This document shows positions 2,256-32,637 of a stretch of 40,523 nucleotides of DNA, piece by piece. This stretch comes from Proteobacteria bacterium UBA1673 (GTDB lineage: Bacteria; Pseudomonadota; Gammaproteobacteria; Comchoanobacterales; Comchoanobacteraceae): the NCBI GenBank assembly GCA_002320385.1, contig DCKN01000037.1, positions 1 to 40,523 of the forward strand, read 5' to 3'. The notes below the pieces were generated by a model. It saw nothing but the letters and a program-made list of their open reading frames with translations, ran no database searches and had not been told where the DNA came from. The position numbers were made by a program, and so were the translations under genes. Each line of letters begins with the position of its first letter. Within the stretch, counting starts at the first letter, position 1.

Positions 2256-2765
2256 TTATGTATATTCTAATCTACAATCAAGATTATCGCTTGCTATTGG
2301 TTGATCTTGTCTAGATTTCTTATTGGACCATGACGTATCTGTACGGTTGGCTTTGTTAACATATTTGCTTTTGTTCGTACCTGCGATTGGAGTTTTACGC
2401 GCCCTAGAAATCTCATCATCTAAAATAGTACAAGTGATGCCAGAAATACTGCTTTTCGCTTCGAGTACAGTTTTTAGATAAACTGAGCCACCCGTATCCG
2501 TGATTACAATGATACCTGGTTGGGTGCTATCGGTTGTAAACTGACCGGTTTCCCGATTATTCATACCGTTCTGTACGGATCGTATTTGAACACTAGTTCG
2601 ATGCCATTCTGTGATACGATTACCTTCTAGAGTTTTTGGTGATGCAATGCTGACATAAGCAATTCGTTTTGATTGATTGATTAGTGTGTAATTTTTCTTT
2701 ACTAATTCCGCGTGTAGGGCTGTTGAACTGAGTGCTAGAACACAGCTAAAAAAATATTTGTACAT
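2256..2765 (-). CDS. Hypothetical secreted protein with an N-terminal signal peptide.
   Basis: 169-aa ORF. The N-terminus MYKYFFSCVLALSSTALHA/ELV looks like a Sec signal with an AxA-type cleavage site. AGGAG lies about 7 nt upstream of the ATG. I recognise no family. Confidence 0.6.
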   Translation of the reverse strand: MYKYFFSCVLALSSTALHAELVKKNYTLINQSKRIAYVSIASPKTLEGNRITEWHRTSVQIRSVQNGMNNRETGQFTTDSTQPGIIVITDTGGSVYLKTVLEAKSSISGITCTILDDEISRARKTPIAGTNKSKYVNKANRTDTSWSNKKSRQDQPIASDNLDCRLEYT

Positions 2766-3108: not shown

Positions 3109-3612
3109 TTGATAAGAATAATACCATCATTTAGAAACTCTATCTCTGAACTCAAAGGCACTCTCGTGTTTTTTACCCGACATAACGCAGAATCTCTAAA
3201 ACCGCTCGATATTTTTTCATTACATTGTCCTACTCGTGTCACTCGTCTTCAAACACTAAAGACTTACCTGAGCCATGTCATTGATACAGTTGGTGCCTCT
3301 GATACAGTTAGCCTGTCTGCATTGAATGGCGACCAAACCGAACAGCTTATTCGATTTATAATCCAACTGACAAATTTCTATAAGCCTGATAATACAATTG
3401 ATGATGGCTTCTTTGAGTTATATAAATCCCATAAAGATGTTCGAGATTTTATCACTAAAGCCTTTGATAAAGACAAAAATAGTGACCGGATAATAGAGTT
3501 TATGTCTCGTTATACCAAATTTCTTCAACACAAAGTCGTGGGTTATTCCCAATCTATGAGGTCTTTTATAAGAAATCAGGAGATGATAATCTCTCCAAAA
3601 AGCAAATTTTAA
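3109..3612 (+). CDS. Hypothetical protein, probably the 5' half of a frameshift-split gene.
   Basis: 167-aa ORF with a TTG start and no internal ATG until near its end. A consensus-like promoter lies just upstream. The downstream ORF's frame is already open across this ORF's last codons. Confidence 0.4.
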   Translation: MIRIIPSFRNSISELKGTLVFFTRHNAESLKPLDIFSLHCPTRVTRLQTLKTYLSHVIDTVGASDTVSLSALNGDQTEQLIRFIIQLTNFYKPDNTIDDGFFELYKSHKDVRDFITKAFDKDKNSDRIIEFMSRYTKFLQHKVVGYSQSMRSFIRNQEMIISPKSKF

Positions 3613-3656
3613 ATAAACAATCAGAGCTTCTCAGCGCAATTATTCAACCGATCCAA

Positions 3657-4085
3657 TTGTTTTCTCAGTCCAATCATCACCTTTTGGCTCATTCACCGTT
3701 GTTATCTCGAGCATCTGTTTTTTTCGTTGATCTTTTATGTGATATATGCAGCAGCGATGAAGTCATTGACAAGATTAGTGAAGATAAACCGGACTTGATT
3801 TTTGAATCACTTCAATATTTTCTTTCCTTGAGAGTCATAAAAATATTTGTTGATGATGAAAAATGTCAATTCGAGGGGCTGTTCAAAATATTTTTACATA
3901 ATACTTTAGTCATACTGCGCGACTTAAAACTTGATCTTGAAAAGACCCCACCTCGATATAGTATCGAGTATTTAATCCCTGAACTCGTGCATGATGTTTT
4001 ATCAAATCTAGATTTTATTAAAGTCTGCGATCGTTACCACATCGAATCATTTCCTCATCAATCATCCTTCACACTAAATTCCTAA
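3657..4085 (+). CDS. Hypothetical protein, probably the 3' half of the same frameshift-split gene.
   Basis: 142-aa ORF with a TTG start. Its frame reads ..LSKKQILNKQSELLSAIIQPIQ.. without a stop from at least 3591, so it overlaps the end of ORF 3109-3612. Confidence 0.4.
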   Translation: MFSQSNHHLLAHSPLLSRASVFFVDLLCDICSSDEVIDKISEDKPDLIFESLQYFLSLRVIKIFVDDEKCQFEGLFKIFLHNTLVILRDLKLDLEKTPPRYSIEYLIPELVHDVLSNLDFIKVCDRYHIESFPHQSSFTLNS

Positions 4086-5279: not shown

Positions 5280-7703
5280 TCATCCGTTCTGGAAGTTTAG
5301 AGCTGAATTGCTTCTGCTTGGGTATACCGATCTATCTTTAGGGGTCGTGCTATCATGACTTGTATCGGTCGTATTTTTAGCGATAAGGGATTCAAAGTCG
5401 CTACTCGGCCATGAGTCACTCATTAAGTTTGATGCGGTTGATTTTGAAAATCCTCGACTGTTATAGTCACTTTTAATAAAAGTTGTTTGAGACTCGATAT
5501 CGGATGTGGATAGACTATCACTTTCAGCACTGTTTGAAGCGCGCCCAGTGATGTATTTGTAACAATTTTTCCCAGCTTTTCTTAGCGAACTATCCAAGTT
5601 TTTTTTTAGCTTATGTGGAAGGTCTAACAGAGTATTCGCAATTGCTCGCCACGCCGCAACATTACTTGTTTGTTTGGTGATACTTTTCTTCAAAATGTTG
5701 TCCAATACTGATGAACGAGATAATAATGTGACCGCGAAGCAATAGCTCGTTGTAAACATACACAGAAATGCTGGATTTACGCTCATATTGATTTGTATGA
5801 TTCCTGACACGATTGACATCAAAGCAACTCCAAATACTGCTGACATTATGGTTAAAATACGTATCCACAATGATGATCGATCTAGGGTCATCATCAATTT
5901 GTAGAGTTTTGGTAGATGGTCTTTGTTTGTTAGAAAATGTGCATACGTTTCGATTTGATCATTAAATGCTAGGTTGTTTTTCCCAACAGAACCATTACTG
6001 TTGATATCGACATGTCCAACAGCAACTGATATATCTGCTGCTTTCATTGCTTTCTCATCGTTGATGTCGTCGCCTATCATAATCACTGACTGTGGTGACC
6101 ACAAGTTGAATAGCTGTCCCCATATCTTCTGCGACCAAGTTGGATTGAGACCGTAGTAATTGTAGCGCTTTAAATTTTTAATGTATTCACCTTTTTTGCT
6201 GTTTTCGCCATGTAAGTCTTTACAGAAAATCACTGCATTATCGACGTCTTTCACCCGAAAACTTCTTAACAGCTCTTTGGTTTTTCTTAGGTTTTCCTCC
6301 CATCCATTCGTACTGTGTCCACTTAGAATCTTGATATTGACACCATCTCGAATGAGGTTTTTCAACATTTGTTGAGCGTCGGGAGAAATGATATAAGGCC
6401 CCTGTTTATCTTGCGGATTTTCATGCCATAGGGTTCCAGTTCGATCAAAAACGATTGTCTTACGCTTATTGATTAGAGGTAAACTTTCAGTACACATTAA
6501 AAACCCTAGATGAGGAACAAGCTTGAATACTTTGCTCAATGTAGCAGGTCTAATTACCATGTAGACACAAGGACATGCCACCATCAGCGTTAGACATAGC
6601 TTTTCAATTCCAAGAACAAATCCCACATGTAATGCTGTGGTTAATGATGAAGATAATGCTGTAGCGTACATTAAAAATAGGAAGACTCTGGTCCCTAGAT
6701 CGTCTTTCAACGTGTGTTGTTTTCGTAGATTCTTGTTTTCTTTTGACCGATTCGACTGATAGTCTTCGGTGCATAAGAAATTCCCTTGATAAACCTTATG
6801 ATGCGCCGCCAGGAGAATTTTTTCATGGTCACTTTCACTGATTGTTTTAGTGACTTTCTGCTCTCCTTGACAGTCTCTATATATCGATGTTCCTGGCATT
6901 AACTCAACCTGGACAGGGAGATAGACACCGCTCTGACTTTCACTAAGTTTATCAACGATAACGATGTCCCCTTTGCGCAGCTGATGGATTGGCTTCTCGA
7001 CAATTCTCTTATGGTTGAAGGCTAAACCTTTGACGTTTCTTTCGGGTACTTCAACTGTCACTCTGGTCGTATGGTTGTGAAAAAAAGCTGATGAATCGAA
7101 GTGAGATCTTAACCAGCGACCTAGGTTGTAAACCGATAACTGCATAAATGTATCGTGTAATAATACTTCGCCATGGATCAGTGGGTGAAAAACAATGAGC
7201 GCTGAGGAGCTCCAGGTGATGCATAGTGAGCTCAATACAATCATTTCCATGGACGGAATCCACGCCATTGTATATATCTTATCAAGTGTACTTTGAATGG
7301 ATTGTTTGATGGTGAGCAGGTTGATGTTTGTGCTCTTTTCCGCAAGCTTTGATAGCCATTCTAGCGTATATTTCGAGGTAGCCACGGTTAGTAGACAGAT
7401 TAATGCGGGTAGCGCTGAGATGTTCAGTATTGGCTGAATCGCTGCCCAAAGTAATAAAGACATGAATACTCTTCTGAGGTGTGTTTTCATGTTGATGTGT
7501 TCAAAGTCTTTGATTAGTACGTAGATAAACATCGCAGTTAGTGAAACAAAAGAGATGACACCTAATTGGCCGTGAAAAAGGAATGCCTCGAGCTCATGAA
7601 ACTGCAATAGCAGCCCCATGACCAATACAATGATATTTCTGTAAAACAGTGCATCTCTGTTTTTAGCGTCTCTGACATGCGTTGCACAACAATGATCGGC
7701 CAT
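5280..7703 (-). CDS. Divergent P1B-type (heavy-metal) P-type-ATPase-like membrane protein. It appears to lack the nucleotide-binding domain and has a Ser-rich C-terminal tail.
   Basis: Contains CPC in a TM helix (LMVACPCVYMV, residues 377-379), a phosphorylation-site motif IVFDRTGTL (D420), hinge motif MIGDDINDEKAMKAADISVAVG (544-), and an actuator loop QGE (279-281) where TGE is normal. Only about 124 residues separate D420 from GDD. There are several hydrophobic helices on both sides. Confidence 0.8.
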   Translation of the reverse strand: MADHCCATHVRDAKNRDALFYRNIIVLVMGLLLQFHELEAFLFHGQLGVISFVSLTAMFIYVLIKDFEHINMKTHLRRVFMSLLLWAAIQPILNISALPALICLLTVATSKYTLEWLSKLAEKSTNINLLTIKQSIQSTLDKIYTMAWIPSMEMIVLSSLCITWSSSALIVFHPLIHGEVLLHDTFMQLSVYNLGRWLRSHFDSSAFFHNHTTRVTVEVPERNVKGLAFNHKRIVEKPIHQLRKGDIVIVDKLSESQSGVYLPVQVELMPGTSIYRDCQGEQKVTKTISESDHEKILLAAHHKVYQGNFLCTEDYQSNRSKENKNLRKQHTLKDDLGTRVFLFLMYATALSSSLTTALHVGFVLGIEKLCLTLMVACPCVYMVIRPATLSKVFKLVPHLGFLMCTESLPLINKRKTIVFDRTGTLWHENPQDKQGPYIISPDAQQMLKNLIRDGVNIKILSGHSTNGWEENLRKTKELLRSFRVKDVDNAVIFCKDLHGENSKKGEYIKNLKRYNYYGLNPTWSQKIWGQLFNLWSPQSVIMIGDDINDEKAMKAADISVAVGHVDINSNGSVGKNNLAFNDQIETYAHFLTNKDHLPKLYKLMMTLDRSSLWIRILTIMSAVFGVALMSIVSGIIQINMSVNPAFLCMFTTSYCFAVTLLSRSSVLDNILKKSITKQTSNVAAWRAIANTLLDLPHKLKKNLDSSLRKAGKNCYKYITGRASNSAESDSLSTSDIESQTTFIKSDYNSRGFSKSTASNLMSDSWPSSDFESLIAKNTTDTSHDSTTPKDRSVYPSRSNSALNFQNG

Positions 7704-7729
7704 TTCTTATCCTTTCCTATATTTGAGAC

Positions 7730-7757
7730 ATTATAACATATTTAAAAGCACTGTCAA
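7730..7757 (-). promoter_or_regulatory. Candidate consensus sigma70 promoter for the ATPase-like gene, TTGACA-N16-TATAAT with a TG extension.
   Basis: The reverse strand reads acTTGACAgtgcttttaaatatgtTATAATgtc. The -35 is the complement of 7752-7757 and the -10 is the complement of 7730-7735. It is followed by AGGAAAGGA and the ATG at 7703. Confidence 0.5.
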
Positions 7758-31283: not shown

Positions 31284-32336
31284 CTATCGGGTGCTGTTTG
31301 GTCTTGATGGGAGGCTTCCTTGCTCGGGTTCACGCTTATCATCATGATTTGGATGATCTAAACGTGCTTCATAACTAGTCACTCTATTTTCTAGATCGTT
31401 TTTTACCTTATTTACCCATGAATTTTCTGGTCGATTCTCTTGATCTGGTGATACCTCGTTCACTCTCTGCTGAGCATCCATAGACTTATCAGTTGCTTTT
31501 TTCGACAATCCTATGGTCCTTTTTTCAACAGCTTTTACATTACCATCCCCATCGATCAAATTGTTTTGTAGCGCATTGGCGATTTCATGCCAATTGTGAT
31601 ACTTTAAAGCGAGAACGTCATCACATTGATACACTTGTTTATCATTTATCTTATTCTCTAATGTATCCAGCCCGTACGCATTGAGAAGGTTTCTGATGGG
31701 TGATGGTTCATCTTTTCCCATATTTATAGAATCAATACTGTCGATATATTGACGGACTAATTGGGTTTCAAGATTCTGATTATCATTATTTATCAATTTT
31801 AGCATCATATCTTGATGGTCTCTCAACTTATCATCAAACATCGTCAGATTGTTCTTGAATGTTTCCAACTGTGTGGCACTCATTTTACCCATTTTTAGTT
31901 TTTTTGGATCTTTGAGCTTTAGATAAGGCACTAATAATAATTGCGTATAAAATAGCGCTTTGTAGATCTCTTCACCATTCGAGGGAGTGATATCATCTGA
32001 ATTAAATTTTTCTATGTTCTTACTTTGCCTTTCCAATAGTTCTTGGATACTGATTGTTGGCTCACCTTCAATAATTTCATTGGAAATATCTTCATAATTA
32101 TAGATCACATCCGATAGATCCTGATTGCCGATCATTTTAGTCTCAGCTCCAATATCCGGACTGCACAATATCTCTCTGAAAGGTTCAGGGAGTGCTTTGA
32201 TTTCTTCCTTACCTCTGTAATATGGTTCACCATCTCTTAGAAAAGCCAAAAGCTCTTCTTCTCTTGCGTGGTGGTCTACATAGCTGGCAGCAATGGCGAT
32301 GGCACTTAACAGCGATATGACAAAATAATGTTCCAT
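31284..32336 (-). CDS. Hypothetical protein with an N-terminal hydrophobic anchor or signal and an acidic, coiled-coil-rich body (ORFan).
   Basis: ATG at 32336 gives MEHYFVISLLSAIAIAASY.... The track ORF starts earlier at a TTG. I recognise no family. Confidence 0.55.
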   Translation of the reverse strand: MEHYFVISLLSAIAIAASYVDHHAREEELLAFLRDGEPYYRGKEEIKALPEPFREILCSPDIGAETKMIGNQDLSDVIYNYEDISNEIIEGEPTISIQELLERQSKNIEKFNSDDITPSNGEEIYKALFYTQLLLVPYLKLKDPKKLKMGKMSATQLETFKNNLTMFDDKLRDHQDMMLKLINNDNQNLETQLVRQYIDSIDSINMGKDEPSPIRNLLNAYGLDTLENKINDKQVYQCDDVLALKYHNWHEIANALQNNLIDGDGNVKAVEKRTIGLSKKATDKSMDAQQRVNEVSPDQENRPENSWVNKVKNDLENRVTSYEARLDHPNHDDKREPEQGSLPSRPNSTR

Positions 32337-32637
32337 AGCAGTAACGGTCTTGTATATGGTGTGTATATAGATCAAAAATAATTTTTTGTCACAAATATTA
32401 TTGCGATATATCTCTGTATCAATGAATAAAATTTCACTTATTTACCCGCTATCGTGTCACCACTCTTTTTCCATCTTTAATTCTGGATTGATCGATAAAA
32501 GATACAGTAAAATTTCCTATTTTGTCTTATCTCTATCTGCGGCAATAAATTTCAGTTCTTTTTGATCAAAATCCGTTATTTTCCTGGCGATCAACCATGA
32601 GTTATTGTAACATAAAGTATTTTAAGATAATTGCGTT

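Follow-up and report, generated by a model that had tools for sequence, protein, structure and literature searches.

An 807-residue P1B-pump-like protein without a nucleotide-binding domain belongs to a conserved clade apparently derived from copper-type pumps

The 40,523-nt contig DCKN01000037.1 of Proteobacteria bacterium UBA1673, referred to in the following as the window, encodes on its minus strand an 807-amino-acid protein (P0001) that is P1B-pump-like in most of its parts and by descent, and that lacks the cytoplasmic nucleotide-binding (N) domain. P1B pumps are well known; the N-domain-less form appears to be new. On balance, with slightly better than even confidence, we read the protein as an intact member of an old, N-domain-less clade derived from copper pumps, in which an aspartyl-phosphate cycle would gate a thiophilic metal without ATP bound to an N domain. 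The features of the gene and of its phosphorylation (P) domain are listed below; here and throughout, conservation is given as counts among 51 aligned full-length members of the clade of short proteins described below. HAD denotes the haloacid dehalogenase superfamily and pLDDT the predicted local distance difference test score of AlphaFold models.

5280..7703, minus strand: coding sequence of the N-domain-less P1B-type pump homologue, 807 amino acids (P0001); intact open reading frame, family searches
5916..6491, minus strand: P domain, residues 405–596, capless HAD core without N domain; model pLDDT 91.8
6432..6446, minus strand: DRTGT, HAD motif I with phospho-acceptor D420; D 51/51, R 51/51, T 50/51, T 51/51
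6315..6323, minus strand: SGH, residues 461–463, HAD motif II, equivalent of TGD; opposite the canonical TGD in the MAFFT alignment
6192..6194, minus strand: K504, the lysine of HAD motif III; 51/51
6087..6164, minus strand: Trp/Tyr-rich insertion, residues 514–539, between motifs III and IV; canonical rows are gapped there
6057..6074, minus strand: GDDIND, residues 544–549, HAD motif IV, Mg2+ site; G 51/51, D545 49/51, N 49/51, D549 51/51

An earlier note on this DNA had pointed to a CPC motif at residues 377–379, FDRTGTL with D420, QGE at 279–281, SGH at 461–463 and IGDDINDEKAM from 543/544, all of which were found in those places. The short distance from D420 to GDD that it remarked upon amounts to 124 residues (to G544), versus 170–211 in canonical P1B relatives. 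Searches for relatives yielded 157 proteins, 130 with both motifs and 27, mostly fragments, without the motif pair. Among the 130, there were 72 with DKTGT and a spacing of at least 150 residues (observed range 170–211) and 56 with DRTxT and a spacing below 150, plus one protein with DKTGT and a short spacing (P0095) and one with DRTGT and a long spacing (P0103). No canonical-length orthologue was found among the relatives, the 56 DRTxT proteins all being short. In the MAFFT alignment, IISPDAQQMLKNLIRDGVNIKILSGHS stands opposite the canonical return segment (..EIKQDAKQVIEELKAMDLNLILLTGD) ending in TGD, which identifies the segment after DRTGTL as the P-domain return segment with TGD changed to SGH, as the earlier note had proposed. 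The same alignment contained a gap of ≈110–115 columns at the canonical N domain, its S.HPL stretch included. Relative to canonical P domains there are two insertions, of ≈14 residues after motif II and of ≈22 residues before GDD; the second is the extra Trp/Tyr-rich insert that had been noticed before (514–539), and it forms a helix (523–535) in the AlphaFold model. These insertions are far too small for an N domain. The family profile matched Archaeoglobus fulgidus CopA in two pieces, profile positions 226–412 aligning with CopA 143–338 and profile positions 516–583 with CopA 511–579. Neither the full-length nor the P-domain model contained an N-domain-like fold, not even a compact one. Spacing, alignment gap and models thus agree that the whole N domain has been lost, as had been suspected from the letters.

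Searches against curated families gave a single Pfam match, to PF00702 (HAD 'Hydrolase') over residues 436–557, with 33.5 bits versus a gathering score of 26.4. TIGR01525 (P1B) matched in two short stretches with 45.5 bits versus a cut-off of 346.25, TIGR01494 (generic P-type) reached 26.6 bits versus 62.3, and TIGR01662 (HAD-IIIA) matched residues 415–558 with 29 bits versus 44.6. Several defining features of P1B pumps are present: a P1B-type membrane core with CPx in M4; the phosphorylation motif, as DRTGT, in which D, T and T are kept and K is replaced by R in 51/51; and the hinge motifs, with SGH (S 49/51) for TGD and GDDIND for GDGxND. The actuator loop TGE(S) retains its Glu (50/51) in a beta-rich domain, but its T and G are not conserved. 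The defining N domain, which follows DKTGT and includes the S.HPL stretch, is absent. Since the N domain is missing and the curated cut-offs are not reached, we do not file the protein as a P1B ATPase. It does belong to the HAD superfamily, with PF00702 above the gathering score, motifs I–IV and a Rossmannoid fold. HAD caps are classed by position, C1 caps following motif I and C2 caps lying between motifs II and III. Here, ≈17 residues separate DRTGT from the helix leading to motif II (the C1 site), and the C2 site holds only the ≈14-residue insertion, corresponding to cap class C0. By its motifs and modelled fold, the head of the protein is a capless HAD module, and the earlier suggestion of a HAD-type module is supported by a P domain that is complete, with four motifs and a predicted capless fold.

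A word-indexed search found 14 close relatives with 32–60% identity, labeled 'hypothetical' or without a protein name, all from Legionellales or Pseudomonadota metagenome-assembled genomes (MAGs). An exhaustive profile search, covering 1.84 billion representatives, returned 44 representatives at E<1e-30 with colinear, single-stretch alignments; canonical P1B pumps came lower in the list and matched as two stretches. The short clade comprises at least 51 cluster representatives that share the deletion, which is therefore not a one-off event. Within it, C377, P378, C379, D420, R421, T424, K504, G544 and D549 were each conserved in 51/51, T422 in 50/51 (one Ser), E281 in 50/51, S461 in 49/51 (two Thr), D545 and N548 in 49/51 each, G462, H463 and C648 in 47/51 each, C655 in 44/51 (the other seven having Ser) and H498 in 40/51; the mean column identity was ≈26% (34-row alignment). 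Judged by sequence, these residues comprise the four HAD motifs by which an aspartyl-phosphate is formed and hydrolyzed, together with the Glu of dephosphorylation, suggesting that the catalytic chemistry has been kept under selection across the clade.

In the order to which the window belongs, 14 of 31 genomes and 11 of 18 genera had a copy, none with an internal stop; all genomes of this order are 0.7–1.9 Mb in size. An even sample of the class contained a copy in 4 of 400 genomes, two of them outside the order, with one genome not scored. The scores of the protein, far under the cut-offs of TIGR01525 and TIGR01494, and its source in a fragmented MAG are what might be expected of a decaying remnant or an assembly artefact without function. 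We consider such an origin very improbable, as it conflicts with the conservation data: the catalytic residues do not vary among 51 diverged members, 14 genomes of the order have stop-free copies, independent assemblies show the same architecture, and the 807-residue frame is intact, with a predicted consensus promoter and ribosome-binding site. In the ESM Atlas, only generic P-type ATPase clusters were found. Neighbors there include Chloroflexota 'hypothetical proteins' of 557–575 residues with PF00122 (E1-E2_ATPase) alone in 89–94% of members; these may be other head-reduced P-type homologues from another phylum, and we regard them as a lead only.

The regions outside the P domain comprise the following features:

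7677..7691, minus strand: CCxxH, residues 5–9, putative cytosolic metal site; invariant in 15 close relatives
7104..7670, minus strand: N-terminal membrane block, residues 12–200, about six helices; DSSP helices of the model, hydropathy
7071..7079, minus strand: HNH triplet, residues 209–211, at the junction of membrane and actuator domain; invariant in 15 close relatives
6768..7070, minus strand: actuator (A) domain, residues 212–312, with QGE at 279–281; beta-rich fold in the model
6861..6863, minus strand: E281 of the actuator domain; aligns with the Glu of CopA's SGEP, 50/51
6507..6743, minus strand: helices M3–M4, residues 321–399; HMM (hidden Markov model) match to CopA and ZntA
6567..6575, minus strand: CPC, residues 377–379; 51/51 in the clade
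5715..5915, minus strand: helices M5–M6, residues 597–663, containing C648 (5760..5762) and C655 (5739..5741)

Across the clade, C5 was found in 41/51 and C6 in 42/51, the remaining rows mostly being gaps, and the residues of the HNH triplet were conserved in 31/51, 37/51 and 33/51, respectively.

The full-length AlphaFold model (15-sequence alignment) had a pLDDT of 70.5 and a predicted TM-score (pTM) of 0.68. Its best whole-protein match was Legionella pneumophila CopA (3rfu; Z 22.8, root-mean-square deviation (rmsd) 6.3, 490 residues aligned), covering LpCopA residues 74..736, with the N-terminal membrane block superposing from residue 74 onward. ZntA in the E2P state (4umv; Z 22.0, rmsd 5.6, 457 aligned) came second, and CadA (7qbz) gave Z 21.3 and rmsd 7.8 over 470 residues. 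In the crystal structure of the CopA P and N domains (3a1c), 160 of 273 residues aligned with the model. The protein shares with Cu(I) P1B-1 CopA (3rfu/4bbj; A. fulgidus 3j09) the CPC helix, the A domain with its Glu, the D-x-T-x-T loop and GDxxND. It differs in lacking the N domain; in having DRTGT for DKTGT, SGH for TGD and xxE for TGE; in having a CCxxH N-terminus and extra N-terminal helices instead of an HMA domain; in the M5 YN motif, which is lost in the window's subclade, and the two Cys in M6; and in falling below every curated P1B and P-type family cut-off. With the Zn/Cd P1B-2 pumps (ZntA 4umv/4umw, CadA 7qbz) it shares the CPC motif, and ZntA also has a Cys-rich N-terminus; the differences are again the missing N domain and the position of the clade, which in our tree groups with Cu-type, not Zn-type, sequences.

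The isolated P domain (residues 405–596) was modeled with a pLDDT of 91.8 and a pTM of 0.88 (34-sequence alignment). The top Foldseek matches were whole capless HADs, namely KdsC/YrbI (4hgn, 4um5, 2r8e), KDN-9-P phosphatase and GmhB (3l8e), with E-values of 7e-6 to 2e-4, TM-scores of 0.46–0.58 and lengths of 156–185 residues, compared to 196. VIA, an aligner independent of Foldseek, placed the ZntA P domain (4umw) at the top, with Z 14.4 and rmsd 2.6 over 133 aligned residues; this match covered the chain from 420 to 668, skipping the N domain. Many HADs came within 1 Z unit of it, and matches to HADs as a whole had Z 12–14. The P domain shares the four HAD motifs and the absence of a cap with the C0 enzymes, but here it is inserted between M4 and M5, facing the actuator domain. 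The matched C0 enzymes are soluble proteins, and KdsC forms oligomers in which neighboring subunits cover the active site. A P-domain homodimer prediction, looking for such a cap from a neighboring subunit, gave scores of 0.02 and 0.17 versus a mark of 0.42, which is evidence neither way. The likeness to KdsC and HAD-IIIA is a resemblance of fold only.

These fold matches bear on whether the protein pumps at all, since by Foldseek the capless P domain overall most resembles soluble phosphatases. Capless HADs typically have phospho-substrates that are large or exposed, the long, disordered and non-conserved C-terminal tail could be regulatory, and one distant member (L014) adjoins a Fur-family regulator. 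The HAD head might then serve as a phosphatase or sensor gated by metal, or might only open and close a passive metal channel, in either case uncoupled from energy. We think this unlikely, as the actuator domain is kept with its catalytic Glu in 50/51 and the CPC motif in 51/51, which are traits of coupled transport and not of a phosphatase; the complete model can be superposed on the pumps LpCopA (3rfu) and ZntA (4umv); and the carrier genomes lack any canonical P1B pump. The pure sensor or channel role once suggested for the protein fits less well with the near-invariant A-domain Glu.

In a FastTree phylogeny of 86 rows, 37 short proteins and two GND variants lay on one side of a branch with support 99. 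A rooted tree of 50 rows was then computed by IQ-TREE quick search under LG+G4, with five KdpB sequences as root and with support values only from the Shimodaira–Hasegawa-like approximate likelihood ratio test. In this tree, the 21 sampled short members formed a clade (99), the protein L021 joined them (99), and the short clade with L021 fell inside a grouping (97) that included the canonical pumps P0091, P0105 and P0132. These three scored best on TIGR01525, with the copper model TIGR01511 close behind, and P0091 passed the TIGR01511 cut-off. As the long-branched clade nests within P1B and not beside the outgroup, the N domain appears to have been lost rather than primitively absent. The trees argue for descent of the clade from copper-type P1B pumps with loss of the N domain. 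By these sequence comparisons the clade is large, old and nested in copper-type pumps, and not one gene's peculiarity, a point that the earlier note had missed.

The M5 YN motif of copper pumps is kept in other clade members and lost in the window's subclade. By alignment, C655 stands at the position of the CopA ligand Ser715, the second Ser of the M6 MxxSS motif, and T651 at that of Met711; the part of PMC7558416 dealing with CopA ligand residues lists both Met711 and Ser715. L021 itself (G017:C9), from the same order as the window, is N-less and retains DKTGT and SGD, without GDGxND. The order also contains further P1B-like open reading frames below the cut-offs, of ≈680–780 residues (G013:C81, G023:C1 and G014:C60, as well as L021), in which the profile's N-domain positions are occupied by only 8–68 residues. 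P0095, the DKTGT protein with short spacing, is CopA-like, with HMA, TGES, DKTGT, SGD and GDGIND, and only 82 residues from the D to GDG. It is placed within the canonical copper pumps and thus represents an independent, clean N-domain deletion; it could be a functional or a broken gene.

According to the reading that we favor, D420 would still become phosphorylated, with E281 assisting dephosphorylation; an excerpt of PMC7558416 describes the Glu of the A-domain GE motif as catalyzing dephosphorylation in P-type pumps. The D420-phosphate cycle would gate a thiophilic metal, most likely Cu+, through an inner-membrane site formed by the CPC motif and Cys residues. With no adenine-binding domain present, the phosphoryl group would not come from N-domain-bound ATP and would have to reach the open P domain directly. 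Candidate donors would be a small acyl- or pyro-phosphate, inorganic phosphate (Pi) by a 'back-door' reaction, or ATP bound with low affinity. Among the P-domain fold matches is 3qu2, one of the HAD enzymes that take phosphate from pyrophosphate. Non-nucleotide donors have a precedent in the poster abstracts of PMC2268108, where an excerpt has Na,K-ATPase phosphorylated by acetyl phosphate and p-nitrophenyl phosphate. Acetyl phosphate made by the cell's own Pta-AckA pathway was considered as a donor and rejected as unlikely, since these genes are present in only 1/14 carrier genomes. In its stronger form, the clade would consist of working P-type pumps that are not ATPases, whose aspartyl-phosphate is charged from pyrophosphate, an acyl phosphate, a phosphorylated partner or another non-nucleotide source, or from Pi when a gradient drives the cycle in reverse; this we put forward tentatively, as a possibility well short of probable.

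ATP might nevertheless remain the fuel, delivered by a nucleotide-binding partner in trans or bound at a new site on the P domain made up of R421, H463, H498 and the two insertions. In P-type pumps the gamma-phosphate and Mg2+ are held entirely by residues of the P domain, which are retained here, and the candidate residues are conserved in the clade (R421 51/51, H463 47/51, H498 40/51), with R421 and H463 differing from the canonical K and D. Moreover, ATP is given as the only established physiological donor for the superfamily in the portion of PMC7558416 concerned with energy supply. The window's genome (1.42 Mb in 122 contigs, 83.7% complete) offers little for such a scheme: a canonical N-domain query matched nothing in a search without a positive control, TIGR01494 matched only the 5280..7703 gene and no other P-type ATPase, and no conserved nucleotide-binding neighbor was found at the window's locus or at those of the relatives. 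The additional ≈40 residues would not suffice for an N domain and were modeled as short helices. Overall, we regard continued use of ATP as unlikely. Of the two proposals on ATP in the earlier note, the absence of canonical ATP binding follows from the missing N domain, SGH in place of TGD and the complete HAD-type P domain; the N domain supplied in trans was found neither as a neighbor nor elsewhere in the 83.7%-complete genome.

The same genome had no P1B pump over the cut-off. Among the 31 genomes of the order, three had a canonical P1B pump above the TIGR01525 cut-off, 0/14 of the carriers and 3/17 of the non-carriers. As the carriers searched had no canonical P1B pump, the protein may be their only such pump. 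It would perhaps supply or remove copper for periplasmic cuproproteins, such as the pseudoazurin-like protein encoded nearby. The neighbors of interest are as follows:

7802..9136, minus strand: AmpG-family permease of the major facilitator superfamily (MFS), the upstream neighbor; TIGR00901 216.5 bits, below the cut-off of 350
9338..10105, plus strand: membrane-anchored pseudoazurin-like cupredoxin, divergent from the MFS permease; PF00127 1.6e-13

The MFS permease is also found directly upstream of the gene in L004, L005, L006, L008, L010 and L011, and MutY, which is convergent downstream of the gene, has the same position in L004, L005, L010 and L011. Synteny of the pseudoazurin-like gene extends from the window to L004, L005 and L006; the gene product scored 108.5 bits on TIGR02375, versus a cut-off of 109.85. 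This protein has a Pro/Ala-rich linker and a copper loop reading C-N-Y-H-Y-I-V-G-H, in which a His presumably occupies the position of the axial Met of pseudoazurins. The window is core chromosome, encoding MutY, LexA, a DinB-type polymerase, Ndk, RlmN, MreBC, GatAB, MiaB, PhoH, CorC, LeuRS, PlsY and TsaD. At 10862..12739 (minus strand), LexA is followed by the DinB/IMS-type translesion polymerase, and MutY lies within a few kb; together these form a small DNA-damage gene cluster adjoining the locus. Six open frames of 142–570 residues had no Pfam match at the thresholds used and are putative genes: 2256..2765 (minus), 3109..3612 (plus), 3657..4085 (plus), 12974..14686 (plus), 31284..32375 (minus) and 38453..39316 (plus). 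In the distant carrier L014 (genome G008), the Fur-family gene (3469–3888, plus strand) and the family member are divergent, and a perfect inverted repeat, GTGTTA-N5-TAACAC, lies in the interval between them.

Another contig (G000 contig C76; L003:751-2829, plus strand) encodes a 692-residue membrane protein, the gene of which immediately follows one resembling cytochrome oxidase subunit III. The protein starts with an N-terminal CC region, contains an invariant FCDCWKTMG stretch and a SACPCV helix, ends in a long Lys/Ser-rich tail, and is without A, P or N domain. It is part of a conserved family of 13 proteins from similar MAGs, one of them from the VX737 MAG series, as is P0009. No tie between this 'headless' CPC protein and the pump-like family emerged apart from a weak match to the M3–M4 profile (probability 18%, E 1.3e-3).

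The control region and the C-terminal end of the gene comprise these features:

7730..7757, minus strand: predicted sigma-70 promoter, TTGACA-N16-(TG)TATAAT; 12/12 consensus match
7711..7717, minus strand: ribosome-binding site, GGAAAGG; 7 nt before the ATG, read from the sequence
5283..5567, minus strand: disordered Ser/Thr-rich C-terminal tail, residues 713–807; pLDDT below 50, 34.7% Ser+Thr

The full-consensus promoter reported earlier, TTGACA-N16-TATAAT, is indeed present (12/12, read from 7757 to 7730), with a TG extension adjoining the –10 element. A scan for promoters overall gave 9 promoter-like sites versus 9.2 expected, so what stands out is only that this match is perfect and where it lies. 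Orthologues in L004, L005 and L006 have a similar upstream TTGAC-N17-TGTTATAATAT, and such elements also head other unannotated genes of the genome. In appearance, the element is a strong extended –10 promoter typical of the lineage and not a regulator box. Control by Zur or Fur was considered because the –10 region differs from a 15-nt Zur-box consensus at three positions, but equal or better matches occurred at other promoters beside unannotated genes and resemble the strong –10 element of the lineage, and it was dropped as evidence. Sequence words of the gene matched 18 datasets, all marine or seawater metagenome contigs and none an RNA run, with at least half of the words found in 2/18. 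The Ser/Thr-rich tail described previously was also seen: Ser and Thr make up 29% of the last 150 residues (44/150) versus 13.5% in the rest of the protein, and residues 713–807 are disordered in the model and showed no conservation in the alignment of close relatives.

Several points weigh against our preferred reading of the protein as a metal-gating, aspartyl-phosphate-forming member of a copper-pump-derived clade. Formation of a phosphoenzyme is proposed from conservation only, and expression of the gene is putative. The AlphaFold models were built from shallow alignments of 15 and 34 rows and are correspondingly tentative. The T and G of the TGE loop vary, position 279 being A, Q, H, S or V and position 280 S, G, A or D. 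The metal is uncertain, as the window's subclade has lost the M5 YN. The synteny with the pseudoazurin-like gene involves relatives from a single genus-level group and may reflect descent rather than function, and the distant members L012, L014 and L016 have other neighbors. The contrast between 0/14 and 3/17 genomes is small, and related genomes are not independent. Finally, the small donor that comes first to mind looks improbable: acetate kinase and phosphotransacetylase were found in only one of the 14 carriers (G014), in genomes that are 53–97% complete.

An excerpt of PMC7558416 gives the textbook view that the cytoplasmic part of every P-type ATPase consists of three domains, N, P and A. 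Our full-text literature search found no paper on N-domain-less P-type ATPase homologues within a coverage that did not extend to broad P1B and P-type surveys. The present clade, which is diverse and apparently under selection, has lost the N domain and kept the other two, along with the phospho-acceptor and the metal site in the membrane, and it contradicts the general statement. It makes two questions testable: whether the N domain is needed for anything beyond the delivery of ATP, and whether a Post-Albers cycle can run on another phosphoryl donor. The protein also provides a natural minimal scaffold for structural study of the coupling between P and A domains. If these proteins are pumps driven by a non-nucleotide donor, they would be the first natural P-type transporters energized without an N domain, and the N domain would be dispensable for the E1/E2 transport cycle. 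No other P1B-type protein was found in these marine bacteria with small genomes, so the protein probably matters for their handling of copper or other soft metals.

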